Shown piece after piece: positions 665-55,038 of a DNA stretch of 64,000 bases. The stretch covers positions 25,197 to 89,196 of the forward strand of contig JADFOP010000003.1 in the NCBI GenBank assembly GCA_022562795.1, in the 5' to 3' direction. Below the pieces are notes generated by a model. The model did not search any database. It had not been told where the DNA came from and was given only the letters and a program-made list of their open reading frames with translations. Origin of the DNA: Nitrospinota bacterium. Lineage in GTDB: Bacteria; JADFOP01. Made by a program: the position numbers and the translations under genes. The stretch's first letter is position 1; the number at the start of each line of letters is the position of its first letter.

Positions 665-1420
665 TCAAGGCTCCCCCAAAGGAGCCTGCCCGCTCAGCCA
701 CCGGGTTAGCTTGGCAGAGACCTCGGGATTGACGGGCAGCTCCCCGTGGTTCAACCATCGGGCCAGGTAGGCCGCGATATCTCCCTCTAGCATCACATCG
801 GGGAGTTGATGGAGACTCACTTCGACGAGCTCCGCCTGGCTGAGCTCCCCGGCGACGGCGTCGATGCCTTCAATTAGTGAGGGGATGTCTCCCGCCCCGC
901 GAAGCAGGAGAGTTGGCACCTGCCTGTCCGGCACGGGGCCCAGAGCCTGGAGAAGCATAAGTACGGCCTCGGGAGAGGCCTGGTTGACTTTTGTGGAGGA
1001 GAGCTTCGTCAAGACCTCCCGGCCCTCCAGCGAGGGCTTTGAGGGGACCGCCGGCGAGATGGCCACCAGCAGGTCGGCCTCGCTCATCAATGCGAGCCGC
1101 CCGGCCAGGGAGTGGCCGATGACGGCTACCGGGAGCCCCGGCCATCGCTCTCGGCAGTATCCCACGGCGCCGTTGATGTCGCCTAAGATCTCCTCGCCCA
1201 AGGGAGCTGGGTGCTCGCCGTGTCCTCTGAGATCGATAACCAAGGCGGCCCAGCCGTCTTCGGCCACCTTGACCCCCAGCCCTATAACGGCCTCTTTGGA
1301 CGAGGCGTAGCCGTGAGCGACGACGGCCGCTCCCCTCGTGGGGACTTCGGGAAGGATGAGGTAGGCAGGGACCGCCGCACCGTCGGAAGCTCGGCAGTCG
1401 TTGACGCGTTCAATCTCCAT
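665..1420 (-). CDS. alpha/beta hydrolase (dienelactone hydrolase-like)
   Basis: GHSLAG nucleophile elbow (GxSxG), HGYASS and HGEHP motifs. 251 aa. Confidence 0.6.
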   Translation of the reverse strand: MEIERVNDCRASDGAAVPAYLILPEVPTRGAAVVAHGYASSKEAVIGLGVKVAEDGWAALVIDLRGHGEHPAPLGEEILGDINGAVGYCRERWPGLPVAVIGHSLAGRLALMSEADLLVAISPAVPSKPSLEGREVLTKLSSTKVNQASPEAVLMLLQALGPVPDRQVPTLLLRGAGDIPSLIEGIDAVAGELSQAELVEVSLHQLPDVMLEGDIAAYLARWLNHGELPVNPEVSAKLTRWLSGQAPLGEP

Positions 1421-1512
1421 GGCGGCCGCCCCTCAAGCTCTTCGTAAGAGAAAGGGGCCCCTGCCCTCCGCGGAGCAGGAGCCCCAGTCGCCCTAGAGGG
1501 TATAGATGGAGC

Positions 1513-3177
1513 TCAATTACCCACGCGTTCCTTTTCCCACTCCCTGACGATTCTTCGAAGCAGCTTGCCCGTCGGCGTCTTCGGGAGGCTCTCCACGAAG
1601 TGGAGCTCGCGCGGGAGCTTGTAGACGGCGACGTGGTCCCGGCAGGAATCGACAATCTCCTTTTTGAGCTCATCGCTTTCCTCAGAGCCCTCCGCCAGGA
1701 CGCAGTAGGCGACGGTGTTCTCACCCCGAACGGGGTCGGGCGAGCCGATGACACAGGAGTCGGCCACCGCCGGATGCAAAAGGAGGGCCTCTTCCACCTC
1801 GGCGGGCCCGATGCGGTAGCCCGAGGACTTAATCATGTCGCCCTCGCGGGAGACGAAGAAGATGTAGCCCTCATCATCGCGGTAGACGGCGTCGCCTAGG
1901 ATGTTCCAGCCGTTTCGGACCGCCGACTTCTGGTTCTCAAGCAACCGCTCGTCGTCTACGTACGGCTTCCAGTAACAGATGCCCGTGGGCCCTTTGATGG
2001 CCAGCGAGCCGACCTCCTGGGGCGGACACTCCTCGCCCTCTTCATTGAGGACCCGGATGTCGAAGCCGGGCAGTTTCCATCCAATCGAGGAGGAGTTCGG
2101 CTCTGGAGCGACGGCGTTGGAAGTCACCAGGTGGATCATCTCTGTGGCGCCGAGCCCCTCGTAAATCTCGTGACCTGTCTTCGCCTTCCAGGCATCGAAC
2201 GTCGCCGGGGTCAGAGAGTCGCCCCCGGTGGTGTACATCCGGACGCTGGAGAAGTCGAAATCCGAGAAGTTCTTCTGGGCCAGGAGGACCCTGTAGGCCG
2301 TCGGCAGACCCGTGAAGACTGTAATCTGGTGCTTTGGGACGAGACTGAGCATCTCCTGGGGCTCGAACCTTGGAATGAGGCTCACGGCTGAGCCGAAGCG
2401 AAATGGGATGAGAGCGAATGTGCCGTAGCCGGCGGCGAAGGAGACGGGTGCGCCACCGCCCAGGGTATCCTCCGGGGTGAGCTTCCAGACGTGCTTGCCC
2501 ACGATGTCCGTCTCAATGAGGGTCTGGCCCACGAAGTGGCAGCAGCCCTTGGGGGGACCCGTCGTGCCGGAAGTGTAGAGGATTAAAGCGAGGTCGTCCT
2601 TCTTCATCTTGGTCGGCTCGAGCTCGGGGCTTCCCGCCCCCACGAGCTTCTCAAAAGAGAGCAGGCCCTTGCCTTCAAGCTCCTCCGCATCACCACCCGA
2701 GATGATAATGTGCTTGGTGAACTCCATGGCCTCTCGGGCCTTTTCCACCTCGGGGAGTATGGGGGCGGTGCTGAACAGGCCAACCGCCTCGGCGTTGTTT
2801 GCGGCGAAGGATATCTCGTCTTTCGACCATAGAGGGCTCATTGTAATCGGCACGGCGCCGATCTTCATAATGGCGAAGTTCGCGATTATCGCCGCCGGGC
2901 CGTTTGTCATCCTGAGCGCAATCCGGTCGAGGGATTCCACCCCCAGCTCCTTCAGGCTGTTGCCCAGGCTGTTTACGGATTCGTAGACCTGCTGGTAGGT
3001 CCAGCTTTTGTCCATGAACTTAATCGCAACGTTGTCGCCCCGTCCCTCCTTGATGTGGATGTCCAGCATCTCTTCGGTGAGGTTGATCTCGTCGGGAAGG
3101 TTCTCATACTCGGCAGGTATAAGGTAATCCGGCAGAAGGTCCGGGGGGGGCAGGCAGTCCTCACGAATTTTTGCCAT
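1513..3177 (-). CDS. AMP-dependent acyl/aryl-CoA synthetase (ligase)
   Basis: AMP-binding signature LILYTSGTTGPPKG, GYGTFA, YRIGPAEVEEAL and C-terminal LPKTPTGKLLRR. GAGGAGGA RBS before the ATG at 3177. Confidence 0.85.
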   Translation of the reverse strand: MAKIREDCLPPPDLLPDYLIPAEYENLPDEINLTEEMLDIHIKEGRGDNVAIKFMDKSWTYQQVYESVNSLGNSLKELGVESLDRIALRMTNGPAAIIANFAIMKIGAVPITMSPLWSKDEISFAANNAEAVGLFSTAPILPEVEKAREAMEFTKHIIISGGDAEELEGKGLLSFEKLVGAGSPELEPTKMKKDDLALILYTSGTTGPPKGCCHFVGQTLIETDIVGKHVWKLTPEDTLGGGAPVSFAAGYGTFALIPFRFGSAVSLIPRFEPQEMLSLVPKHQITVFTGLPTAYRVLLAQKNFSDFDFSSVRMYTTGGDSLTPATFDAWKAKTGHEIYEGLGATEMIHLVTSNAVAPEPNSSSIGWKLPGFDIRVLNEEGEECPPQEVGSLAIKGPTGICYWKPYVDDERLLENQKSAVRNGWNILGDAVYRDDEGYIFFVSREGDMIKSSGYRIGPAEVEEALLLHPAVADSCVIGSPDPVRGENTVAYCVLAEGSEESDELKKEIVDSCRDHVAVYKLPRELHFVESLPKTPTGKLLRRIVREWEKERVGN

Positions 3178-3253
3178 CTCAGTCCTCCTCCTCTTTAGGG
3201 GGAGAGGTGGAGCGGCACGCGCTTTTAAAGGCCGCCCCGACCTGGAACTCTTC

Positions 3254-3646
3254 CTACTCGGGAAGCCCGTCGGAGATAATCAAGTCGATCGCTTCGTTGA
3301 CTAGGAGCATCTTTGCTAATACCTTGTCGGTCCGCGGAAAGACCTCCGAGGGCTTTTTGTCGTCGCCTTTGTAAAAGCCGCTCAGAGCGGGGACGTCCTT
3401 GCCGAAGTTTTCCTCCAGGCCTCCCTTTGCACCAAAGATGGCCCGCTTGTCCATGGGCGGAGAGTTACAGGCCGCGTGATAATCCCTGAAGACGTCCACT
3501 CCGGAGGCTATGTCGACGATCTCGACCTCCACCCCTTTGCCCTCAAGATCTTTGAGCTGCTCGAGGGCCTTGTCGTTGTCACACGGATAGGTCTCCCCAA
3601 CCTCATCCTGAGTGCTGTAGAAAAACTTCACCTTTTCAAATCGCAT
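3254..3646 (-). CDS. hypothetical small protein (possible thioredoxin-like fold)
   Basis: 130-aa ORF preceded by a GGAGGA RBS. YPCDNDK and HAACN motifs. No confident family assignment. Confidence 0.45.
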   Translation of the reverse strand: MRFEKVKFFYSTQDEVGETYPCDNDKALEQLKDLEGKGVEVEIVDIASGVDVFRDYHAACNSPPMDKRAIFGAKGGLEENFGKDVPALSGFYKGDDKKPSEVFPRTDKVLAKMLLVNEAIDLIISDGLPE

Positions 3647-3828
3647 AGCCTGAAATCCTCCACATTCGTTTTTCGGATTACCGACAACACCGTCACGGCT
3701 CTGCCTGTGTTTTGTGTGTCCGGTAGGTAGAAATTGTCTACCGTACCGCTATTAATTATTAATGCTTCTCCTGTCCTAGAACTCTCAATAGATTGTCTTT
3801 AGGCCGGTCGAATGGTTAAATAGCGTCC

Positions 3829-4218
3829 TCAATACGATAAGTCCTCGACTTGACGGAGCCGATCGGCCAGGTCCTCCCCTTCTAGCTCGTGGAAATCCAC
3901 CCCCAGGGCTTGCTCCAGATTTGCTATCTCTTTCTCCATAAATTCCTTGGGGGGCGCGGAGAAATCGACCATATTTGTATCTCGATTGAGAGTTGCCATG
4001 GCGGCATTGTCGAGACCCCCGGAGCCCAGTTGGAAGGTGACAAAAATCTTCGTCCCCTCCTCGTTCATGTGAACTCCACGAAACCCTTCAAAGAGGTAGT
4101 CATACTCGACCAGGTAGATTTGCTCCCAGACCAGGCTAAGAGCTTCTTCAACCTCGTGGCGCTCAAGGCGTTCGTCCACGCAAAACAGCCTAGAACTCGG
4201 ATGTTTGGGTTTGGACAT
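3829..4218 (-). CDS. hypothetical protein
   Basis: ORF trimmed to internal ATG (MSKPKHPSS...) with a GGAGG RBS. The upstream 42 codons are unsupported. Confidence 0.4.
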   Translation of the reverse strand: MSKPKHPSSRLFCVDERLERHEVEEALSLVWEQIYLVEYDYLFEGFRGVHMNEEGTKIFVTFQLGSGGLDNAAMATLNRDTNMVDFSAPPKEFMEKEIANLEQALGVDFHELEGEDLADRLRQVEDLSY

Positions 4219-4416
4219 AATTGCCCTTCGGCCTCCGGCAACTGCAGATGAGATGCCCTCTAACAGCACAAGACGGCAGGCAATAAGGTGATATTGCCCC
4301 TCACCGCCCGCCGTCCGGTGTACCTTGCCCTTTGGAGGCGGGGGCAAGTCTTACCTGCCCCCGCCTCCAGGCATAGGAGGCTTATCGCTACTTCTGTTGC
4401 CTTACGACTCAGCCAA

Positions 4417-4605
4417 CTATGAGACGATCTCTTCCCTCACGTCGCAACTACTAGGCGCGGTAAAAGCCCCGGCTTGCTCCGCCTTGAAGATGGCGAGCGA
4501 GAAGGGCCATTCCAGCTTGAAGCAATACCCGTGGATGTGTGGGATAATGTCAGCAAACGCAGCCTCTTCGTAGTGCGCACAGGTTTGGCATAGTTCAATG
4601 CCCAT
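4417..4605 (-). CDS. small Cys/His-containing protein (62 aa)
   Basis: Strong AAGGAGGA RBS 8 nt before the ATG. CQTC ... HIHGYC metal-ligand-like spacing. Confidence 0.4.
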   Translation of the reverse strand: MGIELCQTCAHYEEAAFADIIPHIHGYCFKLEWPFSLAIFKAEQAGAFTAPSSCDVREEIVS

Positions 4606-4665
4606 TTATGTTAGTCCTCCTTTCGGTCGACACCCGTAATGTGCCTCATCGAGGCACGCGGGGCG

Positions 4666-5082
4666 TTAGCACATGACGTTGCCTAGCTTCTTGGCGTTGA
4701 AAATCTCCGTCCAGATGGAACCCGTCAGCTCTTCCGGCGTAAGAGGCTTACCGGCCTGCAGGTTGCCTCTGACGTTCGTTGTGAGCTCGCGGCAGACGCC
4801 GTCGAAACCGGCTCGTGCCAGCACCGGGGGAGCCACCTTGCCTTTCTCCGTGATGTACGTCCCCTCGGCGATCGTCTCGGCGAACCCCGGGAGGTTGGTT
4901 TGCACGCCCTCGCGGGCATCCTCCGGCCCCACGGTCATCTGACCGTTTTCCTTCTCAATGTAATACACCTTGTCGCATCCCGCGCAGGAGACGTTGCCTA
5001 CGAAGAACAAGAAGGTGTATGGGTCCAGGTAGTTCCTGACTCCACATTCACATTCGATCGTCGACTGGTTTCTTGTCGTCAC
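4666..5082 (-). CDS. zinc-ribbon hypothetical protein
   Basis: GAGGAGGA RBS. N-terminal CEC-x20-CAGC four-Cys ribbon. No recognisable OB fold (so not a clear DUF35/BbsA-type). Confidence 0.45.
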   Translation of the reverse strand: MTTRNQSTIECECGVRNYLDPYTFLFFVGNVSCAGCDKVYYIEKENGQMTVGPEDAREGVQTNLPGFAETIAEGTYITEKGKVAPPVLARAGFDGVCRELTTNVRGNLQAGKPLTPEELTGSIWTEIFNAKKLGNVMC

Positions 5083-5172
5083 TCAGCGTTCCTCCTCTCG
5101 ATAACTGTTACGGAGGGCGCGGAATAGGTGGCGTGAGCCACCTATTCCGTCCCTTGAACGTAGAGGTCTTCC

Positions 5173-6561
5173 TCAGATGATCATCTGCTCCTCCAGATCG
5201 CGAATGTACCCCATGGAGAAGCCCAGCACCTTCTGGTAGATGTACTCGTTGTCCGCTCCCACCGGCTTCATCTCCCACTTAATCCGGCGGGGGGTTTCGG
5301 ACATATGGGCGAGGGTGCCCTGGTGGCACAGCTCTCCAAAGCTTGGATCATCCAACCAGATAATCTCACCCCGTTGTAGGTAGTGCTCTTGGTTGGCCAC
5401 CTCCTTGCTGTTCCAAACGGGCTGGCAGTTGATCCCGGCCTCTATCAGGATGGCCTCGGCTTCTTCCTTGGTCTTGTCTGAGGCCCACGCTTCGACCTCG
5501 GGATAGATCTTGTACTGATTCTCAGCATTTACCCGGTCGTCGTGCGTCGGGTACGCCGTGGCCAGGTCGTCTCTGCCTATGACTTTGCAGAGCTTCGCGA
5601 AGTCTTCGTTTTCGTAGGCCGAGATGAAGATGTAACCGTTCTCCAGCTCCTGTGGATTGTCCGAGTCGGGGTAGGAGCTCTTGCCGCACATGATAGTCCC
5701 GTGGACGCAGAGCTGGGTGTCGTAGTTACCCCAGCGCTGGCGGATGACGCCGAAGCGACCCCAAAGCGGCAGGGCGTACTCCATCACTCGCGATACGCCG
5801 TGGACCTGGGAGTACTCGAAGTAGTTACCCTGGTTGGACTGGGTCTCGCGCCAGTAAAGCGCCGCCAAGGAGCCGGTGGCCCCGTACTGGCCTCCCCAGA
5901 AGTCAGCCAGCCAGATGCAGTGCTTGGAAGGATTCCCAATGCCTGCGCCGCCCTCTGGGGCCCCCCTCGGCGAGGGAAATCCGGTGATGGAGAAGGCCCC
6001 TCCCTGGGCCTGCCCCAGGATGTCGTAGCTGGCTCGCTTCCGTCCCTGGCCCCAGCCACCGAAACCGCCCTGCCACACCTGGACTAGGCGTGGGTTGACT
6101 TCCTTGGCGGCGTCGTAGCCGAAACCCCAGCGGTGGAAGGTGCCCGGCCGGTAGTTCCACAGCATGATGTCTGTCTTGCGCATCAACGAGTGCATGATGG
6201 TCTTCGCCTCGTCTTTGCGCATGTCGAGCGAGATGAAGTACTTGTTGACATTGGCCGAGGTTACGCCCAAGCCGAGCCCGCGGTCTGGCACCCATCGGGA
6301 GACGGGGAAGAGGTAGGGCTCGTTGTACGGAGTCGTATGCCGCATGGGCTCGCCAAGGCGGGGCATCTCAATCTTGATTACCTCGGCTCCAAGCTCGGCG
6401 AGGTAGGCGCACGAGCTGGGGCCGAGAATGTACTGCGTCGGCGACATGACCCGGTAGCCTTTCAGCGCTTCGGGCTTTGCCCAGGCGCCCTTAGGGTCGA
6501 ATATCGTCCGACAGTAGTCTTCAAATGACAGTGCGTCGAGATCTACGGACACGTATTTCAC
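5173..6561 (-). CDS. family III CoA-transferase (CaiB/BaiF family), subunit 1
   Basis: GYRVMSPTQYILGPSSCAYLAELGAEVIKIEMPRLGEP matches the family III CoA-transferase N-terminal Rossmann motif (LDLS..AGP......GAEVIKVE.P). The start may be the GTG 9 nt downstream with an AAGGGAGG RBS. Confidence 0.85.
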   Translation of the reverse strand: MKYVSVDLDALSFEDYCRTIFDPKGAWAKPEALKGYRVMSPTQYILGPSSCAYLAELGAEVIKIEMPRLGEPMRHTTPYNEPYLFPVSRWVPDRGLGLGVTSANVNKYFISLDMRKDEAKTIMHSLMRKTDIMLWNYRPGTFHRWGFGYDAAKEVNPRLVQVWQGGFGGWGQGRKRASYDILGQAQGGAFSITGFPSPRGAPEGGAGIGNPSKHCIWLADFWGGQYGATGSLAALYWRETQSNQGNYFEYSQVHGVSRVMEYALPLWGRFGVIRQRWGNYDTQLCVHGTIMCGKSSYPDSDNPQELENGYIFISAYENEDFAKLCKVIGRDDLATAYPTHDDRVNAENQYKIYPEVEAWASDKTKEEAEAILIEAGINCQPVWNSKEVANQEHYLQRGEIIWLDDPSFGELCHQGTLAHMSETPRRIKWEMKPVGADNEYIYQKVLGFSMGYIRDLEEQMII

Positions 6562-6569
6562 CTCCCTTT

Positions 6570-8000
6570 CTATATTACGTTGTTCTCGCGAAGCGAGATC
6601 ATATCGTCACGGGTGAGCCCAACCAGCCTGCGGTAGACATCATCGTTGTCGTAGCCGACAGGCCGTCCCAGGAATCGCACCCTAGCGGGCGTGCGGTGGG
6701 ACTGCAATGGGCTCGTACCGTAAAGGACCGGACCGTAGTGCTCGGTATCGACCATGGCCACGTGAACGCGGTACTTGAAGTGCTTGTACTCGGCGACCTC
6801 GTCGGTGAATAGCACACCGCCGGAGGCCACTTCTTCCTCCAAGAGCGCTCCCTCACTCTCCATCCGGGTCAGGTCCTTGCCCCACTCACTGAGCAGCGTG
6901 TAGGTTTTGACCTGGGAGTAGTAGGGAAGCCGGTCGATAACCACCCGCATATTCTCGTCATCGACCATCATCTCTTCAAGCTCCGGCCGGAGCTTGCCTA
7001 CGGTCTTCCAGATGCGGTACCAGAGGCGGTCGTGACCGCCGCCGACCATCAAGAGACCATCTTTCACCGGGTTGACGGCGTAGATGTTGATGGCGAGGTC
7101 CCAGTTACCGAAACGGGGACGGATGGAGCCATCGTAGCCGTACCAGACCCACTGATAGTCGATGATCCGGATGTTGCCGTTGGCGGCAGTGTTCTCGATG
7201 AACTGACCCTTGCCCGAGAGCGTGTCGCGGTGCAGGAGGGCTGCGATCGCGTTCATCGCCGCTCCCGTGCCGGATACGTGGTCCATGGCCATCATGCCGC
7301 TGCGGGTCGGGTGGCCGCCGAAGGCCTTCGGGGCGCCCGTGCCCCACTGGAATCCGCTGGCCGCCTGGCCGGTGGGCTCCAGCATCCAGGGCGTGTCCTT
7401 CTTCGGACCCCACTGGCCGCGCTGGCCGAGCCAGACGTAAATGAGCCGCGGGTTGATCTTGGAGAGCTGGCGGTAGCCGATGCCCCATTCGTCGAACTGT
7501 CCCGGAGGATAGTTCTCAACAACCACGTCGGCATGGACGGCCAGCTTCTTAAAAATCTCGCGGCCCTCTTCCGTCTCAAAGTTCAGCGTGATGGACTGCT
7601 TGTTTCGACACTCGTGGAGGAAGTGAGGACCACACTCCTCACCCGACCTCTTGTCTTTGAAGTACCACTTCTTGCGTCCGAAGGGCACGTACCGACGGGC
7701 CGGGTCCCCACCGGGGGGCTCCACCATGATGGTCTCGGCGCCCAGCTCGGAGAGCATAGAGCTGAACCATCGGGTCTGCATGCTTTTGATTCCGCAGTCA
7801 AGCACCCGCACACGCTCGAGAGCCATGGCCTTGCCAGGGTCGTCTTTGGGGTGCACGTGGTCCTCAAGGAACCTGGACCAGTTGATTTCCGCCTCCGTTG
7901 AGCCCGCATACGCCGTTTCGAAGTCTTCGATGGGCGAAAGCGGCCAGAGACAGATATCGTCACGGTCCGTTTGTTCATATGCTGGATAAGTATCTGCCAT
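6570..8000 (-). CDS. family III CoA-transferase (CaiB/BaiF family), subunit 2
   Basis: RVRVLDCGIKSMQTRWFSSMLSELGAETIMVEPPGGDPARR signature. AAGGAGGG RBS. Paralogous to, and 9 nt upstream of, the preceding transferase, giving a BbsEF-like heteromeric pair. Confidence 0.85.
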   Translation of the reverse strand: MADTYPAYEQTDRDDICLWPLSPIEDFETAYAGSTEAEINWSRFLEDHVHPKDDPGKAMALERVRVLDCGIKSMQTRWFSSMLSELGAETIMVEPPGGDPARRYVPFGRKKWYFKDKRSGEECGPHFLHECRNKQSITLNFETEEGREIFKKLAVHADVVVENYPPGQFDEWGIGYRQLSKINPRLIYVWLGQRGQWGPKKDTPWMLEPTGQAASGFQWGTGAPKAFGGHPTRSGMMAMDHVSGTGAAMNAIAALLHRDTLSGKGQFIENTAANGNIRIIDYQWVWYGYDGSIRPRFGNWDLAINIYAVNPVKDGLLMVGGGHDRLWYRIWKTVGKLRPELEEMMVDDENMRVVIDRLPYYSQVKTYTLLSEWGKDLTRMESEGALLEEEVASGGVLFTDEVAEYKHFKYRVHVAMVDTEHYGPVLYGTSPLQSHRTPARVRFLGRPVGYDNDDVYRRLVGLTRDDMISLRENNVI

Positions 8001-8153
8001 TCAGCTACTCCCTCCTTATATTGCGTTGCGTTACCTTAATAACGCGCATTAGATGAGTAACTCCTCTCTTTCCTTTATCAAACGACTGCTTGACTTCCTC
8101 CCCCCCTTTCTCTCCGAGGTTTGTGGATTGGTTAAGGCGGCACTCCTCTTTAT

Positions 8154-8180
8154 GGTATGAAAGGTATGAAAGGTATGAGT
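8154..8180. repeat. 3 x 9-bp tandem repeat GGTATGAAA / GGTATGAGT in transferase-operon promoter region
   Basis: Direct reading: ggtatgaaa ggtatgaaa ggtatgagt lies between the iclR 3' end and the CoA-transferase start. Confidence 0.5.
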
Positions 8181-8215
8181 CGTGCCACCGCCTCTCTTAG
8201 GTCCAAGCAATGTTT

Positions 8216-9025
8216 TTACCTCTCGCCGCCACTTAACGAGACGGCGATACCATAACCCAACCGGCGGGAGAGCTCGTCCCCAGCATCCTTCATGATGCCT
8301 ATGAGCTCAGTTTCAATCCTCTCGTCAGGCATCCGGGACGAGGGTCCGGCGATGCTGATGCCCGCCACCACCTGCTGGGTGTAGTCTCTGATGGGTACCG
8401 CTACACAACTCACGTTGTTTTCAAATTCCTCTCTGTCTACAGCGCACCCCTGCTCTGCCACATCCTTTAGATGGGCTTTTAAGGCTCCCATGTCCGTAAT
8501 TGTGGTTTCCGTGTAGGGATGCAATGGTTCGTCGCCATACAGCTCTTCGAACTTCTCCGGCTCCTGGTAGGCAAGCTGGGCTTTTCCGACGGCGGTACAA
8601 TATGCCTTGAGGCGCCGCCCGATTCGTGGAGCAATACGGACGGCCTGTGTGGTTTCGACCCCGTCGAGGTAGACCACATCGCCGTTCTGCAAGAGCGCCA
8701 GGTATGCAGATTCGTTACAGGCGGCAACGATTTTCTCCAATATGGGCCGGGCCTCTTGAATAAGCTTGAGATGGGCAACGAAGTTCTGACCAAGCTCAAA
8801 AATCCTCAATCCCAGGCGATAGTTTCCCGTCAGTTTATTCTGCTCTACGTAACCTTTGGCCTCCAGGGTCCCTAGCAGCCGTAATATATTGTTTTTGTTA
8901 AGACCCTGACGCTTAGCAAGCTCTGTAACTCCTAGCTCGTCATCGGGACCAGCCAGGTTTTCCAAAATATCCAGAGCGTTGTTGACGGACTGGACGACAT
9001 ACCGGCTCCTTTCCCGTTTGACCAT
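8216..9025 (-). CDS. IclR family transcriptional regulator
   Basis: N-terminal HTH (ILENLAGPDDELGVTELAKRQGLNKNNILRLLGTLEAKGYVEQ) and C-terminal IclR effector-domain pattern. Confidence 0.85.
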   Translation of the reverse strand: MVKRERSRYVVQSVNNALDILENLAGPDDELGVTELAKRQGLNKNNILRLLGTLEAKGYVEQNKLTGNYRLGLRIFELGQNFVAHLKLIQEARPILEKIVAACNESAYLALLQNGDVVYLDGVETTQAVRIAPRIGRRLKAYCTAVGKAQLAYQEPEKFEELYGDEPLHPYTETTITDMGALKAHLKDVAEQGCAVDREEFENNVSCVAVPIRDYTQQVVAGISIAGPSSRMPDERIETELIGIMKDAGDELSRRLGYGIAVSLSGGER

Positions 9026-9506
9026 TATGATTCAGTCCTACGACGAACCGGGAACGCCGTCAACACGATATAGACTCTCCAGACCTTGCTTGGCCTGGAA
9101 ACGTCGGCTGAGGAAAATCTGTGGTAATTCAGTGAATGGTGCGCATGCTGCTAGTGCTTGTAACGTAGATTATAAAAACCCTGTGGCCTTTGTCAAGCGA
9201 AAAATGCAAAAGGACTGCATTATTTTAAACGTCTTTTGGTTTTTCTGGCTGGGAGAATCGAGGCCTCCGTCGCCCTCCTCGCTTAGGGCCTTAGATATGT
9301 GTGATTTACGGCGAATATGGTCGGTGGATAGGCCCCACCATTTCGTTATGGGATGTCTTAAATGGCTCTCGGAATCCCTACGTGGAGCAGGGATGAACCC
9401 CTCCTCAGGGCTCTTTTAAGATGCTGTTTTAAACCCTATCGTAATGGAATCCGTTTCGCGGGGTCCTGTGACAGGAGGGCTGTGGATTAGTTTTCCACAT
9501 CTTGGG

Positions 9507-10700
9507 TTACTTTTTCCGCGATTTTCCGAATACGGTATTCCAGGCCTCCGTTTCGGCGACGCGCTGGACGGTTCGTAGGGCTAGGTCCTTGTCTTCCGCA
9601 ATCCGGCGGCAATCCTCGTATTCCGGCGCCACATTTAGGAGGCGGCCGGCCCGCCGTCCGACTTTGACGGCCACCGGCCCCCAGGGGGTCTCGACCGTGA
9701 GAAGCTCTCGATCCAACACGATCCGCCTGGTTGTGGTCCGACGGATGCCGAACGTTGTGGTCTCGGCAAAAAGGACGTCGGTGACCGCCTCGGCTGCCTC
9801 CGGCGGGGTGACGGCCGTCAGGGCCACTCCCGGGCGGTTCTTCTTCATCTGAATGGGCGTTAAGCCCACATCGAGCGCCCCGGCGGCGAAGCACCGGTTC
9901 ATGAGGTGGTCGAACACCTCGGGGGAGCAGTCGTCGATGTGAGTTTCCAACACAACGACCGTCTCGCCGGCGGCAAGCGGGTCGCGTTCTCCGAGAATTA
10001 TACGAAGGGCGTTTGGCCGCTCGGCCACATCGGCCTGGCCTGCGCCGTAGCCCACGGCCTGCGGCACCATAGGGGGCATGAGGCCGGATGAGGAGGCGAG
10101 CGTTGTGAGCAGGGCGGCGCCGGTTGGGGTGGCCAGCTCGAGGGGCGGCCCCTCGGCGTAACAAGAAAATCCGGCAAGGAGCTCTATTGTGGCGGGTCCG
10201 GGGACGGGCAAGGTGCCGTGGGCGGCCTTAACTGTGCCGCTGCCGGTGTTTACCGGCGAGGCGATAATCTCATCAACACCTAACCGGTGGAAGCCTGCGA
10301 CGGTGCCGACCACGTCTACGATCGCGTCAATGGCCCCAACCTCGTGGAAGCGGACCTCATCCACCGGGCAGCGATGGACTCGGGCTTCGGCTTCAGCCAG
10401 GCGGGTGAAGACGTGGGCCGCTCCCGCCCGGACCTCCTCGGGGAGGTCGGCCCCATCGACAATGGACAAAATGTCAGACAAGCGGCGGTGAGACTGCTCG
10501 TCGGCGGTAATTTCCACTGTGGCCAAGGTGCAGCCTATTCCGCAACGCTCGACCTCGGTCACCTCCAGACGCCATCCGCCCACGCCCAAGGTCTCGAGGT
10601 CGGCCCGGAGCGTATCCGCTGGCAGGCCCGCATCGAGAAGGGCTCCGAGGAACATGTCCCCGGCCACCCCGCTGAAACAGTCGCAGTAGGCGATAGTCAC
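9507..10700 (-). CDS. larC: LarC nickel-pincer cofactor biosynthesis protein (DUF111, Ni insertion/CTP-dependent)
   Basis: N-terminus MTIAYCDCFSGVAGDMFLGALLDAGL is the LarC/DUF111 hallmark. 397 aa. Confidence 0.8.
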   Translation of the reverse strand: MTIAYCDCFSGVAGDMFLGALLDAGLPADTLRADLETLGVGGWRLEVTEVERCGIGCTLATVEITADEQSHRRLSDILSIVDGADLPEEVRAGAAHVFTRLAEAEARVHRCPVDEVRFHEVGAIDAIVDVVGTVAGFHRLGVDEIIASPVNTGSGTVKAAHGTLPVPGPATIELLAGFSCYAEGPPLELATPTGAALLTTLASSSGLMPPMVPQAVGYGAGQADVAERPNALRIILGERDPLAAGETVVVLETHIDDCSPEVFDHLMNRCFAAGALDVGLTPIQMKKNRPGVALTAVTPPEAAEAVTDVLFAETTTFGIRRTTTRRIVLDRELLTVETPWGPVAVKVGRRAGRLLNVAPEYEDCRRIAEDKDLALRTVQRVAETEAWNTVFGKSRKK

Positions 10701-11482
10701 TCGTCTCCCCCCGAATGCTGTGGCTTTTCTCCCAAGCGGTTTATTGAGTGGGCCATAGTCCCGGCGCCGAAACCGTTATCGATGTTAACTACGGCGACCC
10801 CCGGCGCGCAGGTATTGAGCATGGTGAGCAGGGCAGCCAGGCCACCGAAGCTCGCCCCATAACCGACCGAGGTCGGCACAGCGATGACCGGCGCATCAAC
10901 CAGGCCCCCGATGACGCTAGGCAGCGCGCCGTCCATTCCGGCCACTACGACGATGACTCGGGCCTCATCAAGGCTCTCCCGCGCATCCAGGAGTCGGTGA
11001 ATCCCCGCCACACCGACGTCGTAGAGACGCTCTGTCCGGCTGCCCAAAACTTGTGCAGTTACTGCGGCTTCCTCTGCCACGGGAATATCCGAGGTGCCGG
11101 CGGTAACGACGAGGACTTTCCCGAGGGTGGGAACCACCGCCTCTCGTTGGATGACGACGGTACGGGCCAGCGAATTGTGCTCTGCACAAGTGTCCATGGC
11201 TTTCAGGCGTTCGGCCAGGGTTTCATCCACCCTCGTGGCCAGCACCGTTGAGCCCCCTGCGAGGAGAGAGGCCACGATAGCCTCCACATCCTCGGGCCTC
11301 TTGCCCTCGCAGTAGACCACCTCCGGGGAGCCGGTCCTCAAGGGCCGATGATGGTCGATTCGGGCGAAGCCGAGGTTCTCGAAGGGGAGGTTCCGGAGGG
11401 TTTCCACCGCTTCCTCAGGGCTCATCGCGCCCTGAGCCACGGCCTGGAGCATCTCCCTGAGCCGGGTTGGGTCCATCGCCAC
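10697..11482 (-). CDS. larB: LarB (PurE-like pyridinium-3,5-biscarboxylic acid mononucleotide synthase)
   Basis: PurE-like fold motifs VLVVTAGTSDIPVAEEA and VIVVVAGMDGALPSVIGG. Overlaps larC by 4 nt. Confidence 0.8.
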   Translation of the reverse strand: MAMDPTRLREMLQAVAQGAMSPEEAVETLRNLPFENLGFARIDHHRPLRTGSPEVVYCEGKRPEDVEAIVASLLAGGSTVLATRVDETLAERLKAMDTCAEHNSLARTVVIQREAVVPTLGKVLVVTAGTSDIPVAEEAAVTAQVLGSRTERLYDVGVAGIHRLLDARESLDEARVIVVVAGMDGALPSVIGGLVDAPVIAVPTSVGYGASFGGLAALLTMLNTCAPGVAVVNIDNGFGAGTMAHSINRLGEKPQHSGGDE

Positions 11483-48163: not shown

Positions 48164-49594
48164 ATGCAGATGTCAGAGGCTCAGGTGGCCTCCATTGTTG
48201 AGAAGGTGCTTCAGAGGATGGAGAGCCCCCCTAGGGCCGAGCCCGCTCCTGCCTCGGCCGGAACGGAAGGCCCCGGAATTTTCGCCACCCTCGACGAGGC
48301 AGTCTCGGCTGCTGAGAAGTCCCAGCGGGACCTCGTGGCTCTCGGCCTCGCGGTTCGGGTAGCCATGGTGGAGTCGATCCGCCTGGTCTGCCTCGAGCAC
48401 CTCGAGAGCCTCGCCCGGATGGCCGTTGAGGAGACGGGATTCGGCCGCCTCGAGGACAAGGTAGTCAAGAACCGCCTTGTGACCGAGCTCACACCGGGGC
48501 CCGAGTTCTTAACAACTGAGGCGTTTAGCGACGACTCCGGCCTCACGATTCAGGAGCGGGCCCCATACGGGGTATTGAGCGCTATCACCCCTTCGACGAA
48601 CCCCTCTTCCACCATCATAAACAACGCAATCGCCATGGTATCGGCCGGCAACGCGGTCGTCTTCAACCCCCATCCGGGGGCGGTGGGCGTCTCGCTGCGA
48701 ACCATTGCGCTGATGAACGAGGCTGCCGTCTCGGCCGGAGGTCCCCCGACCTGCTTTACTTCCCCGGCAGAGCCATCGGTCGAGACGGCCCAGTCTCTCA
48801 TGCGCCACCCCAAGGTGGCCCTCAACGTGGTAACCGGCGGGCAGGCCGTCGTAGAGGAAGCCCGCCGGGCCGGAAAGCGGGTCATCGGCGCCGGGCCCGG
48901 CAACCCCCCCATCGTGGTGGACGAGACGGCGGAGATCGACCGGGCCGCCCGCGACATCGTGGCCGGGGCGAGCTTTGACAATAACGTCGTCTGCACAGAC
49001 GAGAAGGAACTCTTTGTCGTGGCCTCCGTGGCCGATGAGCTCAAGGACCGGATGAAGGCCCACGGAGCGTACGAGCTCAGCCCTCACCAGACCGAGCGGC
49101 TCTCTAGGCTCGTGATCGAGCGGGAGGCCCCGACGCGGCAGTCCTCGGCCATTAACCGGGCCTTGGTGGGCAAGGACGCCCAGGTGATCCTGAGCGAGAT
49201 CGGCGTGGATGCGCCCGAGACGGTGCGGCTTATTCTCTGCGAAACCGACCGGGACCACCCCTTCGTCTGGACTGAGCTCCTCATGCCCATCCTGCCCCTT
49301 GTGCGGGTGGAAGATGTGGAGGAGGCCATCGGCCTGGCCGTCCAGGCCGAACACGGCTTTGGCCACACGGCAGTGATTCACTCGACCAACGTGGGCGCCA
49401 TGGACAAGATGGCCAGGGATATCAAGACCGCCCTCTTCGTCAAGAACGGCCCGAGCTATGCCGGCCTAGGTGGGGGCGGGGCGGGATACACGAGCTTTAC
49501 CATCGCCACACAGACCGGCGAAGGGCTCACCACCCCCTACACCTTCACCCGCGAGCGTCGATGCACGCTTGTGGGTTCGTTTCGAATCGTATGA
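48164..49594 (+). CDS. CoA-acylating aldehyde dehydrogenase (PduP/EutE-like) with N-terminal encapsulation-peptide-like helix
   Basis: ALDH fold with a catalytic Cys region (FDNNVVCTDEKE). N-terminal amphipathic helix SEAQVASIVEKVLQRM, followed by a Pro/Ala linker PPRAEPAPASAGTEGPG, as in BMC-targeted AldDHs. Confidence 0.85.
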   Translation: MQMSEAQVASIVEKVLQRMESPPRAEPAPASAGTEGPGIFATLDEAVSAAEKSQRDLVALGLAVRVAMVESIRLVCLEHLESLARMAVEETGFGRLEDKVVKNRLVTELTPGPEFLTTEAFSDDSGLTIQERAPYGVLSAITPSTNPSSTIINNAIAMVSAGNAVVFNPHPGAVGVSLRTIALMNEAAVSAGGPPTCFTSPAEPSVETAQSLMRHPKVALNVVTGGQAVVEEARRAGKRVIGAGPGNPPIVVDETAEIDRAARDIVAGASFDNNVVCTDEKELFVVASVADELKDRMKAHGAYELSPHQTERLSRLVIEREAPTRQSSAINRALVGKDAQVILSEIGVDAPETVRLILCETDRDHPFVWTELLMPILPLVRVEDVEEAIGLAVQAEHGFGHTAVIHSTNVGAMDKMARDIKTALFVKNGPSYAGLGGGGAGYTSFTIATQTGEGLTTPYTFTRERRCTLVGSFRIV

Positions 49595-50253
49595 CGCCCG
49601 CGCGCCCGACACCTCGACCCATCTACCCAGGCCAGGACTTCCGTCCTGTCCTGACGCGCCTGCCTGAGCCCTACCTGGTGGAGGAGTGGGCCGTGGCGGC
49701 CGTGGAGCTCAACCGGATCGCCCCTGGATTCACCGCGTGTGACGCCATGCTGAAGGCCGCTCCGGTAACGCTCATAGAGGCCGCGCCCCTCTGCCCGGGC
49801 AAGTACCTGATCATTGTCGGCGGCGAGGTGGCGAGCGTGGAGAGCGCGTACGAGGCGGGCCTCGCCGTTGGCGGGACGGCCGTCATCGATCGGCTCCTGC
49901 TCGCCAAGGCCGATCGGCAGGTCTTTCCGGCCCTCGTGGGCGAGTCCAAACGGTCGGTGACCTTCACCGAGGGCGACAGCTTGGGGGTCATTGAGACCTG
50001 CTCGGCCGCCTCGGCCATCCTCGCCGCCGACGCCGCCTGCAAGGCCGCCGGAGTGCGTCTCTACGAATGCCACATCGCCCAGGGCCTCGGCGGAAAGGGC
50101 TATCTTTACTTCTTCGGAGAGCTCAGTGCCGTGGAGGCGAGCGTGGAAGCAGGAGGGGCCATCGTATCACCGGATGGACTCCTCGTCGGCACCGAGGTCA
50201 TACCCGACCCGGATGCAATTCTCGTTGAGCGTCTTATGAGAGAGGTTCCCTAA
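49591..50253 (+). CDS. tandem-BMC-domain shell protein (BMC-T, PduT-like)
   Basis: Two BMC domains (AAVELNRIAPGFTACDAMLKAAPVTLIEAAP... and LGVIETCSAASAILAADAACKAAGVRLYECHIAQGLGGKGYLYFFGELSAVEASVEAG). ATGA overlap with the AldDH stop. Confidence 0.7.
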   Translation: MTPARPTPRPIYPGQDFRPVLTRLPEPYLVEEWAVAAVELNRIAPGFTACDAMLKAAPVTLIEAAPLCPGKYLIIVGGEVASVESAYEAGLAVGGTAVIDRLLLAKADRQVFPALVGESKRSVTFTEGDSLGVIETCSAASAILAADAACKAAGVRLYECHIAQGLGGKGYLYFFGELSAVEASVEAGGAIVSPDGLLVGTEVIPDPDAILVERLMREVP

Positions 50254-50256
50254 GCG

Positions 50257-50613
50257 ATGTTCCTCGCTGATGTTCTCGGCAGAGTCGTGGCCACCCGCCG
50301 ATACGATAAAACTATAGGCTACCGGCTACTTTGGGTTCAGCCTTTGGACCACCACGGGGAGGCGGCAGGCCAGCCCGAGGTGGCACTCGACACCGTCTTG
50401 AGCGGAAGCGGCGACCGGGTCATCTGCGTAATCGGTCGGGAGGCCTCCATGGCCATGGACCTCCCCGGCCGGTTCAGCCCCGTGGACCTGGCTATTGTTG
50501 GTATCGTCGACCGGGTAGACGTGGATAATGGTGAGCCGGACAACGGGAATGCCAACGGTAATTCCAATGGACATGCCAACGGTAATTCCAATGGGAATGC
50601 CAATGGGCATTAA
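50257..50613 (+). CDS. BMC-P vertex protein with Asn/Gly-rich C-terminal repeat tail
   Basis: MFLADVLGRVVATRR ... DRVICVIGREAS ... DLAIVGIVDRV EutN/CcmL pattern, plus a C-terminal NGNANGNSNGHANGNSNGNANGH tail. Confidence 0.8.
   Translation: MFLADVLGRVVATRRYDKTIGYRLLWVQPLDHHGEAAGQPEVALDTVLSGSGDRVICVIGREASMAMDLPGRFSPVDLAIVGIVDRVDVDNGEPDNGNANGNSNGHANGNSNGNANGH
50545..50610 (+). repeat. short coding tandem repeat (aatgg[ga][ac]atgccaacggtaattcc) encoding N-G-N/H-A-N-G-N-S
   Basis: Direct reading: ggaatgccaacggtaattccaatggacatgccaacggtaattccaatgggaatgccaatgggcat. Confidence 0.6.
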
Positions 50614-50637
50614 TCGAGGAAGAGGGTTCTCAAGCTG

Positions 50638-50910
50638 ATGCTCCTCGCTCAGGTAGTCGGTACGGTGAACTCAACGGTCAAGCAACCTGCATTGATCGGA
50701 CACACCGTTCTTTGCGTGGAGCCCCGCGACGAGGCCTGGCAGTCGACGGGAGAACCCTCCTTCCTCGCGATCGATTTCGCACTGGCCGGGGTGGGCGACC
50801 GGGTGCTGGTGGTGCGCGAGGGCGGGGCGAGCCGTCTCACCATGGGGGTGGAAGACGCCCCCGTCCACGCCGTCGTCGTAGGCATCGTGGATGCCGTCGA
50901 AGGGAGATAG
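50638..50910 (+). CDS. BMC-P vertex protein (third paralog)
   Basis: MLLAQVVGTVNSTVKQP...DRVLVVREGGASR...HAVVVGIVDAV EutN/CcmL pattern. 90 aa. Confidence 0.8.
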   Translation: MLLAQVVGTVNSTVKQPALIGHTVLCVEPRDEAWQSTGEPSFLAIDFALAGVGDRVLVVREGGASRLTMGVEDAPVHAVVVGIVDAVEGR

Positions 50911-50917
50911 TGAGGTT

Positions 50918-51724
50918 ATGGGAATGGCCATCGCCGCACCCTGGCAGACCGAGAAAATGCTCCGAGAGGAAATGTGCCGCATAGGACGGCTCATCTATGA
51001 GCGGGGCTTCATCGCCGCCACCGACGGCAACCTCTCGGTGCGTCTCGACGACGAACGGGTCCTCTGCACTCCGTCTGGCCTCTGCAAGGGATTTCTCGAG
51101 CCGTCAGACCTGGTGGTGGTGGACTTTGATTTGAAGCTGCTGAAGGGGGTCGGTCAGGCTAGCACTGAGATACTTATGCACTTGGGGGCATACCGGGCCC
51201 GGCCCGAAGTTCGCGCCGTCATTCACGCTCACCCGCCCACGGCGATCGCCTTCTCCATCGGGGGGCGGTCTGAGGCTCTTGCCGGGGCTTTCTTGCCGGA
51301 GGTCGTCTACACCCTTGGGGCCATCCCGACGGCCCGCTACGCGACCCCCGGCACGGCTGATGTCCCGGCGAGCCTCGAGCCCTACTGGGCCAAGTGCGAC
51401 GCCATCATCCTCGACCGACACGGCTCCATCACGGTGGGAGAGACCCTGTTGGAGGCCTACCTGAAGCTCGACAAGGTGGAGCACGCCGCCAAGGTGACCT
51501 TCATGGCTACGCTGCTGGGAACGCCCCGGCCCCTTCCGGCCAAGGAGGTTGAAAAGCTCGCCCTTCAGGGAGCGGCCAGGGGCTACCCGACCGAGTGCTC
51601 GGCCTGCGCCGACGGCGGGGTCTGCGATCGGGAGGCGCCCGAGGGTGATCGCGGCCTATCCGATGCGGTCGAGGAGTCTATCGTCGAAGAGGTGCTTCGG
51701 GCTGTCCGGAAGGCGGCAGGGTAA
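50918..51724 (+). CDS. class II aldolase/adducin-family enzyme (L-fuculose/rhamnulose-1-phosphate aldolase-like) with C-terminal encapsulation-peptide-like helix
   Basis: GNLSVRLDD...VLCTPSG and AVIHAHPPTAIAFS (Zn-binding His) typical of FucA/RhaD/AraD. C-terminal extension ends in the amphipathic LSDAVEESIVEEVLRAVRKAAG after a Cys-rich linker. Confidence 0.8.
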   Translation: MGMAIAAPWQTEKMLREEMCRIGRLIYERGFIAATDGNLSVRLDDERVLCTPSGLCKGFLEPSDLVVVDFDLKLLKGVGQASTEILMHLGAYRARPEVRAVIHAHPPTAIAFSIGGRSEALAGAFLPEVVYTLGAIPTARYATPGTADVPASLEPYWAKCDAIILDRHGSITVGETLLEAYLKLDKVEHAAKVTFMATLLGTPRPLPAKEVEKLALQGAARGYPTECSACADGGVCDREAPEGDRGLSDAVEESIVEEVLRAVRKAAG

Positions 51725-54700: not shown

Positions 54701-54799
54701 GGCCTGCAAGGCCTCCAACCGCTCGGCGACCTCTGCCTCAGCTTCGGCGTCGTGGCCACCGTACGCCTCAACAATCTCGCTCCAGGCTTGATCCGTCAT
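51776..54799 (-). CDS. mega-fusion: two CitE/HpcH-type (malyl/citramalyl-CoA lyase-like) domains + MaoC-like (R)-hydratase hot-dog + second hot-dog
   Basis: Start trimmed to MTDQAWSEIV (AAGGAA RBS at 54804-54810). CitE motif RTIEHVFPG...HILLLDIEDAV. A second degenerate CitE-like repeat (ADMIICDVDGL...IHGIVLPEVDDV). MaoC core NRYHLDKAYADASRFGGLVAHGLLTTSL...FRAPVAFDDTL, followed by a second hot-dog. The 104-codon ORF-track 5' extension is low-complexity. Confidence 0.7.
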   Translation of the reverse strand: MTDQAWSEIVEAYGGHDAEAEAEVAERLEALQALDPKASREAVIDRLSWELRPRTIEHVFPGDNWYFLHKAAQSDAHILLLDIEDAVATTRKEIARPVIALLIRAFRGQVLTPEDVAFLQEHAMPEGRADQLAEAFEPTEGGLALKPDLRLPPDQMILVRPNNLRTSWSAGDYIHVIREVGDLIDGIYLPKVKDADDVLVAVRILRAIQAERGWRPARHKVFVLTELPGAILQARQILAAAPEVEEINLGVVDYTAATGGRSIVQQQQYTYMRFPLLTIVEAARATGKVAGTGITVKLNADDTEQDTTKAISIGIHRKWSVHPAHIEGIARHASHFPSPVRRRLEYEPIEPFDLEELKRLAAEARPILPPTVFIPRPVVLARSVVEAKGDDLESVRVAVASRADMIICDVDGLLAPGQEATHEALAEALKSEGGGKVVACQADLRGEGAASGLASLLGALGETIHGIVLPEVDDVATVREAAGLLTEAEREVGLEVGALALGVRLTKPESVERDSEAIAEASRRMMWLILDLAQDMPKEDLADPATKGYLYYHSALVAATAQADIDAIDGPSEPEKVEDEASFVANLGFHGKLVTPEQADAVAAIMNPPRAGTPPEDLSTPEGAAFLSRWTNSVERALEILELYATADQERKLGAVAYNDPVTNQPELVDAATARIYYGQLERAFKADHLTDDEAERYVTARERLLLALRPGGTEQLGTAVFPGQTLVGYATPVREWMVQTFAKTSGDRNRYHLDKAYADASRFGGLVAHGLLTTSLMLASLGRLLPGDTEETLTVRFRAPVAFDDTLTSVAYVEEVSDDGRARLALKALNQAGTVVCEGETTIRRQARPEPVVPAPAELPWVRAWADDVAPSVPDVIHDFTNPASPRVQSITKPITDEIVRATRALFGALDLHQLSALLAIGTMAMASAESAPGHLLLSAEVSAFGAPIEAGDDLTVTVTAPEPSDIRRSKKGQGPPIVPLSIEIVNQRGESVLEGQVVKLMEEGG

Positions 54800-54980
54800 C
54801 ACAGTTCCTTCGGGTAACACGTCATGGGGATACCCAATCGGCCTGTGCCGTCGTGCGCTACGCTCGGTGAAAAGGTCTCGAAGCGGTGACGCGGTTGCCC
54901 CGGCTTTACTGTAACCGAGGTTTTCAGGTGGTTGACCCAAATTATAACCCGAATCCGAGGCGCTTTCAAGCGCTAGAGCC

Positions 54981-55009
54981 TTGACGGACCCCCAAGGCGT
55001 CCGTATAGT
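54981..55009 (+). promoter_or_regulatory. sigma-70-like promoter
   Basis: TTGACG-N17-TATAGT ~30 nt upstream of the 55039 ORF. Confidence 0.4.
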
Positions 55010-55038
55010 GGGCCTTTGCCACATCGAGGAGGTCGTGC

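Follow-up and report, generated by a model that had tools for sequence, protein, structure and literature searches.

Two adjacent genes for family III CoA-transferase subunits, alpha (CoAT-A) and beta (CoAT-B), and four genes for small proteins behind them (S1 to S4) lie on the minus strand of a metagenome-assembled genome (MAG) of a Nitrospinota bacterium, in a 64,000-nt stretch of one contig that we refer to as the window. Comparison with other genomes and metagenomes showed that the alpha-beta-S1-S2 order is part of a gene arrangement that recurs in about 100 independent loci and that the four small open reading frames (ORFs) are real, conserved, system-specific genes belonging to unnamed families. 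Our preferred interpretation, to which we give about an even chance of being right, is that these genes encode a conserved enzyme of several subunits, so far uncharacterised, that has a heterodimeric family III CoA-transferase as its base and is fed by a dedicated thioester-forming enzyme.

Conservation and gene order of the transferase cluster

A genome scan with an alignment of S1 gave 22 loci, all in MAGs, from Anaerolineae, Campylobacterales, Hippea, Thermodesulfobacteriota/Syntrophobacterales, Bacillota, Actinomycetota and Archaeoglobales, and a metagenome scan gave 167 further S1 relatives, from which 80 loci were fetched. The resulting census comprised 112 loci with 93 distinct S1 sequences, and all architecture counts given below come from the 60 loci with at least 2.5 kb of sequence downstream of S1. 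The system spans at least seven phylum-level groups, Nitrospinota and Campylobacterota included, the archaeal Archaeoglobales being a single order, and relatives of S4 were also found among NC10 and Rokubacteria proteins. Clusters of S1 sequences numbered 12 in a collection of 5.8 billion proteins and 52 among 1.84 billion representatives. In Anaerolineae MAGs the relatives of S1 to S4 are 35–55% identical to the window proteins and stand in the same order behind the same two transferases; the small ORFs and their synteny are conserved here across a phylum boundary.

Gene order around S1 is close to invariant. Of the 66 loci that extend far enough upstream, 65 have S1 directly behind CoAT-B, and S2 comes after S1 wherever downstream sequence is visible, the exception being a metagenomic locus (L032) in which a second transferase pair lies between them. 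The reading frames abut or overlap by 1–4 nt in the loci of Campylobacterales (Campylobacterota), Hippea and Archaeoglobales, and S2 and S4 are fused as one polypeptide in 11 of the 112 loci (seven of these among the counted type 2 loci, see below). Apparent fusions of S1 (the longer representatives P0150, P0151 and P0158) are likely frameshift or chimeric artefacts and were not used. The fixed order, the overlapping frames and the S2–S4 fusion together suggest that the small proteins are subunits or obligate partners of the transferase. The initial annotation of the window had proposed that they may be novel accessory subunits, a fair reading that the fusions and overlapping frames seen elsewhere strengthen.

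From the genes accompanying alpha, beta, S1 and S2 the loci could be divided into four types. Type 1 (11 loci) has the arrangement alpha-beta-S1-S2-S3-S4 found in the window and is accompanied by the AMP-forming ligase (five of the 11) or by a metallo-beta-lactamase-fold (MBL)-TPR protein together with a 116-aa protein (six, several of them with an MFS transporter as well). Type 2 (20 loci) is alpha-beta-S1-S2-S4, without S3; all 20 carry the ligase, 13 have an IclR gene at the flank of the cluster and genes of the U32 family are present in 10. Type 3 (21 loci) is alpha-beta-S1-S2-S3, without S4, and is accompanied by an LsrF-type thiolase of the DeoC family (17 loci; NCBIfam NF006081, 344 bits vs a cut-off of 297), a Tdh-like Zn-alcohol dehydrogenase (20 loci) and, in six of the 21, the ligase. 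Type 4 (seven loci) has alpha-beta-S1-S2 followed by two other small proteins, with the MBL-TPR protein in all seven and the ligase in three. Profile–profile comparison of S3 with the protein in the S3 position of type 4, and of S4 with that in the S4 position, revealed no homology. The evolutionary core of the system is alpha-beta-S1-S2, with S3 and S4 as variable modules and the ligase, the commonest partner of all, and IclR as frequent companions; the initial annotation, which drew the whole window operon as the unit, had set its limits too wide. Three Anaerolineae MAGs carry a type 1 and a type 4 locus on different contigs (L015/L026, L010/L027 and L012/L028), which points to paralogous complexes that play different parts within a single cell.

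The CoA-transferase pair

Both large subunits match PF02515 over its full length, with scores of 229.3 bits (CoAT-A, profile positions 1–359 of 366) and 253.8 bits (CoAT-B, positions 1–366) against a cut-off of 23.3. They are paralogues of each other (27% identity, E 1e-41) and form a fixed adjacent pair, as expected of a heteromeric enzyme. When CoAT-B is aligned with the formyl-CoA:oxalate CoA-transferase 3ubm, its Asp220 falls on the Asp of the GDSNTG motif; the CoAT-B residues opposite the Gly-rich stretch of 3ubm are not themselves glycine-rich. Asp220 is invariant in 21 orthologues from different phyla, as is Asp240 of CoAT-A, at the catalytic position, in 20, and as both residues are retained both subunits look catalytically competent. 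About a hundred further positions are invariant in each subunit, those of CoAT-B including the transferase-type S-Y-D motif.

The pair is distant from everything that has been solved or assigned to a function. The best structural relatives reach only 1e-28 to 1e-29 (8.7e-28 for the best Protein Data Bank (PDB) match of CoAT-A), and the NCBIfam formyl-CoA transferase models TIGR03253 and NF003809 were not reached by CoAT-B (158.6 vs 504.2 and 168.1 vs 442 bits, respectively) or by CoAT-A (98.8 and 104 bits, again below the cut-offs); every other NCBIfam equivalog was likewise missed widely by both. On these scores the transferases are close to no characterised clade, and no tight clustering with a single-substrate clade was seen. 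The initial annotation had likened the pair to BbsEF, a comparison that holds for the gene arrangement, in which paralogous family III subunits are encoded side by side (here 27% identical and 8 nt apart), and fails for the sequences: the BbsE/F chains of 9fn0 match at 1e-19 to 1e-24, whereas entries for formyl-CoA, CaiB/BaiF-family and SUGCT transferases do better, at 1e-25 to 1e-29. The window pair keeps the catalytic Asp in both subunits. BbsEF has no Zn-ribbon, Cys-rich or thioredoxin-fold partners of the kind present here, and the bbs beta-oxidation genes are not among the annotated neighbours of the present cluster. The best sequence matches of CoAT-B, with the catalytic Asp in alignment, are Frc/YfdW and 3ubm. 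Frc/YfdW and the formyl-CoA:oxalate CoA-transferase are homodimers; CoAT-B falls far below their family cut-offs, as noted, and no oxalyl-CoA decarboxylase is encoded among the annotated neighbours.

The small proteins S1 to S4

Neither Pfam nor NCBIfam gave a match for S1 to S4 or for their type 4 counterparts beyond sub-threshold Zn-ribbon and Glrx-like hints, in agreement with the initial annotation, which could name no family for them. It had also pointed to Cys clusters in two of the small ORFs, and these are S1 and S2. S1 carries C11, C13, C33 and C36 in a CxC/CxxC...CxxC pattern, of which C13, C33 and C36 are invariant; its structure model is beta-rich, with a predicted Zn-ribbon followed by an extended tail, and Pfam Zn_ribbon_5 gives a sub-threshold hit (E 0.004) on an archaeal homologue. 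S2 has C6, C9, C28 and C54 (CxxC...C...C), with C9, C28 and C54 invariant and C6 present in most sequences. Profile searches of the PDB sequences with the S1 and S2 alignments gave chance matches only (E above 0.4). Both proteins presumably bind metal. S3 is poorly conserved (23–43% identity across type 1 and type 3 loci). S4 has a thioredoxin fold and is yet not a redox thioredoxin, having no CxxC or CxxS motif and a single, non-invariant cysteine (C22) that is Thr or Phe in some relatives.

Features of the window locus

All nine ORFs of the initial annotation, an IclR-type regulator, the transferase pair, the four small ORFs, a ligase and a hydrolase, were recovered where it had placed them, and Pfam confirmed the domains that it had named (Table 1). 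Its spacing of 9 nt between the transferase genes needs correction, adjacency apart: if the GTG at 6561 is taken as the start the gap is 8 nt, and the start chosen by gene callers, which gives a CoAT-B of 459 aa, makes it 17 nt. Of the lengths proposed for the small proteins (138, 62, 130 and 130 aa) only the third changes. The S3 start is the ATG at 4218, backed by alignment of homologues, giving 129 aa, whereas the mechanical ORF runs to 172 aa from an upstream TTG. The near-consensus ribosome-binding sites that had been reported ahead of the four small ORFs are there (GAGGAGG, AAGGAGG, GGAGG and GGAGGA).

Table 1. Genes and other elements of the CoA-transferase locus (window coordinates)
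Feature	Position	Strand	Size	Basis or remark
Sigma-70-type promoter-like site	9169..9196	-		TTGACA-16 nt-TATAAT, 12/12 matches, upstream of iclR
IclR-family transcriptional regulator	8216..9025	-	269 aa	Pfam HTH_IclR + IclR_C
CoAT-A, family III CoA-transferase subunit alpha	6570..8000	-	476 aa	PF02515, 229 bits
CoAT-B, family III CoA-transferase subunit beta	5173..6561	-	462 aa	PF02515, 254 bits
S1, putative Zn-ribbon small subunit	4666..5082	-	138 aa	Universal marker of the system
S2, Cys-rich mini-protein	4417..4605	-	62 aa	Universal
Structured S2–S3 spacer, two long GC-rich hairpins	4219..4416	-	198 nt	Minimum free energy, shuffles
S3, lineage-variable putative small subunit	3829..4218	-	129 aa	Conservation of homologues
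S4, thioredoxin-fold putative small subunit without CxxC	3254..3646	-	130 aa	
AMP-forming acyl-CoA ligase, ANL superfamily	1513..3177	-	554 aa	Pfam AMP-binding + AMP-binding_C
Terminator-like hairpin, ligase–hydrolase gap	1454..1485	-		13 pairs (10 G-C), then T-run
Alpha/beta hydrolase, GHSLAG nucleophile elbow	665..1420	-	251 aa	Pfam Hydrolase_4/Abhydrolase_1

The spacers between the small genes are long in the window (60–198 nt), and the longest of them separates S2 from S3, unlike the situation in other lineages where these two genes abut. This spacer has a minimum free energy of -104.9 kcal/mol (z = -6.8 vs shuffles) and no T-run, and it may be an element for mRNA processing or stability or an inserted repeat. 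Rfam gave no match for the whole window or for the structured spacers. No inverted repeat suited to an IclR operator was found in the spacer between iclR and the CoAT-A gene, and it should be noted that the promoter-like site upstream of iclR is a consensus match only, shuffled sequence being equally rich in such sites. The hairpin and T-run that follow the ligase gene suggest that the hydrolase may be transcribed separately.

GenBank product names in the window are ‘CoA transferase’, ‘hypothetical protein’ and ‘acyl-CoA synthetase’, and the source annotations inspected for genes of the system offered only ‘hypothetical protein’, ‘CoA transferase’ (CaiB-like or CaiB/BaiF family), ‘acyl-CoA synthetase’ and ‘2-aminobenzoate-CoA ligase’. 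Two ORFs, one of 476 aa at 48 kb and one of 554 aa at 55 kb, were considered as a possible second copy of the system in the window; they encode an aldehyde dehydrogenase and a TSP3-repeat protein, and the idea was rejected. Elsewhere in the window, LarC-like (Ni_insertion) and LarB-like (AIRC) genes for biosynthesis of the nickel-pincer cofactor lie directly upstream of iclR (9507–11482, minus strand); LarA was not seen among their annotated neighbours, and GpsA, RtcB and archease come next. A small locus resembling those of bacterial microcompartments (BMC) occupies 48164–51724 on the plus strand; its genes encode the 476-aa aldehyde dehydrogenase, a shell protein of 230 aa with tandem BMC domains and a 277-aa class II aldolase. 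Next to it, about 45 kb from the operon (51776–55111, minus strand), is a gene for a 1111-aa protein in which HpcH/HpaI (citrate-lyase beta/malyl-CoA-lyase-like) and MaoC dehydratase domains are joined, an unusual fusion of two CoA-ester enzymes.

Ligase, regulator, hydrolase and neighbouring genes

The ligase scores 253.6 bits with PF00501 and 82.1 bits with PF13193, and its translation contains the motifs YTSGTTGPPKG and PKTPTGKLLR. It co-evolves with the system, and the orthologues found within the cluster in other phyla are close (E 1e-150 to 1e-209). It reached no substrate-specific NCBIfam equivalog cut-off, and its nearest PDB relatives are anthranilate-CoA ligase 4wv3 (2e-72), acetyl-CoA synthetase 9g79 and benzoate-CoA ligases. 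The transporters near the system vary with lineage (MFS, APC-type amino-acid permease, Liv-type ABC). The initial annotation had associated the cluster with anaerobic or otherwise unusual carboxylic-acid catabolism while holding that the substrate is not inferable; with solved relatives of the ligase at only about 1e-60 to 1e-72 and lineage-dependent transporters the latter view stands, and an aromatic or anaerobic assignment goes further than these data allow. In one Anaerolineae-type locus (L007, 4867–5433) a gene for a Gpr1/Fun34/YaaH protein (SatP-type acetate/succinate channel) lies two genes upstream of CoAT-A, which hints at acetate or succinate among the acids exchanged.

The IclR protein (PF09339, 46.9 bits; PF01614, 156.7 bits) is below every NCBIfam equivalog cut-off, the best being BhcR with 188 vs 350 bits. 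Loci of Anaerolineae, Archaeoglobales and Actinomycetota have homologues of the alpha/beta hydrolase close to the cluster, but an iterated search found them in only seven of the 112 loci, and the hydrolase is a loose and occasional neighbour.

Several loci have neighbours of other kinds. In L032 (3156–12255) alpha-beta is followed by a Uma2 nuclease-like gene and S1, and then by a diverged second pair, a 121-aa protein, an S2–S4 fusion and the ligase. In the type 2 loci L034, L035, L037 and L038 the ligase is followed downstream by up to three genes of the U32 family (UbiU/UbiV/TrhP-like; at least one is present) and by a gene for a 4HBT thioesterase resembling YbgC, and several type 2 loci with U32 genes adjoin nuo and ATP-synthase operons. 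These neighbours are a possible lead to O2-independent hydroxylation or quinone chemistry; a link with quinone biosynthesis as such was set aside, the U32 proteins being far below equivalog cut-offs and present in half of the type 2 loci (10/20). In the genome of the window itself, just left of position 1 and at most 5 kb from the hydrolase (L001, 15093–19593), are genes for an MBL-TPR protein, for a protein of 121 aa related to the 116-aa protein mentioned above and for a MoxR-type AAA+/VWA fusion protein. In Anaerolineae, too, the cluster is flanked by these three families, and they may be maturation or accessory factors.

Discussion

In the mechanism that we propose, the AMP-forming ligase of the cluster would make a first acyl-CoA thioester from a carboxylic acid, and the alpha-beta complex would pass the CoA from this thioester to a second acid by ping-pong chemistry through an Asp anhydride. 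The small subunits would stabilise or gate the alpha-beta complex, and IclR would regulate expression according to the presence of the substrate or an intermediate. In type 3 loci the LsrF-type thiolase would take the place of the ligase as supplier of the first thioester. One or the other of these thioester-making enzymes is encoded in most loci, a partner pattern that fits the model in which the first thioester is supplied by a partner.

Several points weigh against this proposal. The physical complex of alpha, beta and the small proteins is one that we infer from the genes, and the metal ligands are likewise read from Cys patterns, three invariant residues in each of S1 and S2. No conserved downstream CoA-ester enzyme adjoins the system among the annotated neighbours, which would leave the transferase with a pathway that has no visible purpose. 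Six of the 11 type 1 loci, all from Anaerolineae, have no ligase nearby, and type 4 replaces S3 and S4 with non-homologous proteins, which would be odd for purely structural subunits.

The missing downstream enzyme could be explained if the chemistry took place within the conserved small proteins. The system might then be a metalloenzyme that depends on CoA thioesters. Its transferase pair would load the substrate as a CoA ester and recycle CoA onto the next one, a metal centre in S1/S2 would catalyse, for example, a dehydration, an isomerisation or a C–C cleavage, and the ligase would do no more than prime the cycle. We regard this as possible and distinctly less probable than the transferase proposal. 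Three invariant cysteines with a variable fourth ligand, the arrangement found in both S1 and S2, also fit catalytic metal sites, and both Nitrospinota and Anaerolineae have, near the cluster, a gene for a MoxR-type AAA+/VWA protein, a type that frequently takes part in metalloenzyme maturation. The pairing of ligase and transferase is typical of priming and recycling systems; the carnitine system CaiB/CaiC likewise combines a family III transferase with an AMP-forming ligase by which the CoA cycle is primed. The logic would be that of the phenyllactate dehydratase FldABC of Clostridium sporogenes with its ligase FldL, in which a family III transferase again acts alongside other subunits and a priming AMP-forming ligase; a family III transferase subunit is described for FldABC in PMC13416013. 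The likeness is one of organisation: S1 to S4 are not homologous to FldBC, to the HgdAB dehydratases or to CaiD/CaiA, there is no activator ATPase here, and no dehydratase, lyase or Fe-S family was matched in searches of Pfam, NCBIfam and the PDB. S1 and S2 are moreover small enough to be mere structural Zn modules, and S4 has no redox motif. Extended to all types, this reading would make alpha-beta-S1-S2 an unrecognised class of such metalloenzymes, with S3/S4, or the non-homologous pair together with the MBL-TPR protein, tuning the substrate, a generalisation that we consider equally tentative.

The remaining explanations are harder to reconcile with the data. A CoA-dependent isomerisation shunt, in which the ligase activates a (di)carboxylic acid, the pair acts intramolecularly or as a racemase and a hydrolase or thioesterase releases the product, has models in mesaconyl-CoA C1-C4 transferase, ThnP and alpha-methylacyl-CoA racemase. 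Intramolecular transfer would suit a ligase to which neither a second acid nor a CoA donor can readily be assigned, and hydrolases are often companions of the cluster, be it an alpha/beta hydrolase, a protein of the MBL fold or a 4HBT thioesterase, although these differ in fold and are not universal. Racemases of family III have a His-Asp pair, whereas CoAT-B has the transferase-type S-Y-D motif, and the shunt leaves the small subunits with no role, so that we think it unlikely, even though intramolecular family III transferases are documented (PMC11659651, PMC9196870). Less likely again is that the small ORFs are unrelated passengers (regulators, chaperones or a linked independent system) beside an ordinary transferase heterodimer. 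This would accord with the wide spacers of the window and with an interaction that is so far deduced, but the alpha-beta-S1-S2 order is invariant across phyla and domains of life, S1 is almost never found apart from CoAT-B, and in other lineages the frames overlap and S2 and S4 are in some cases one protein. Least probable of all, in our estimation, is a BbsEF-type succinyl-CoA:arylalkylsuccinate transferase module of anaerobic hydrocarbon or aromatic acid catabolism. The adjoining paralogous subunits recall BbsEF and the nearest solved relatives of the ligase include anthranilate- and benzoate-CoA ligases, but 9fn0 was no better a match than formyl-CoA, YfdE or SUGCT transferases, and the bbs-type acyl-CoA dehydrogenase, enoyl-CoA hydratase, SDR and thiolase were not found in Pfam-annotated neighbourhoods or among the annotated recurrent families. 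The hosts (Nitrospinota, NC10 and Campylobacterota MAGs) have no hydrocarbon-degradation context, and the paired-transferase clusters of anaerobic benzene degraders have other partners. The latter (‘Magic’ of ORM2; BzS1_26180/90) resemble the present cluster in that a family III pair is joined there by an acyl-CoA synthetase and by small partners whose annotation is poor, and they were considered as instances of the same system and rejected on the strength of their descriptions, which give MaoC/hot-dog and GlcDEF-like flavoprotein partners and mention no proteins of the S1 to S4 type.

The superfamily of the large subunits and, from BbsEF, their paired layout were already known. What is new in the transferase system described here is its obligatory tie to two Cys-rich proteins of unnamed families, its interchangeable third and fourth subunits and its broad range with no characterised member, and our search of the literature found no description of the alpha-beta-S1-S2 architecture. 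The accepted view of family III CoA-transferases is that the homodimer or heterodimer is sufficient in itself. In this system a deeply conserved family III pair is always tied to two Cys-rich proteins and has, in addition, a dedicated thioester-forming partner. The hosts, among them Nitrospinota, NC10, Rokubacteria, Anaerolineae, vent Campylobacterota and Archaeoglobales, are environmentally important yet uncultured. If the small proteins are indeed subunits, the system would represent a new enzyme architecture with at least four new protein families and would point to an unrecognised step in the organic-acid metabolism of these organisms.

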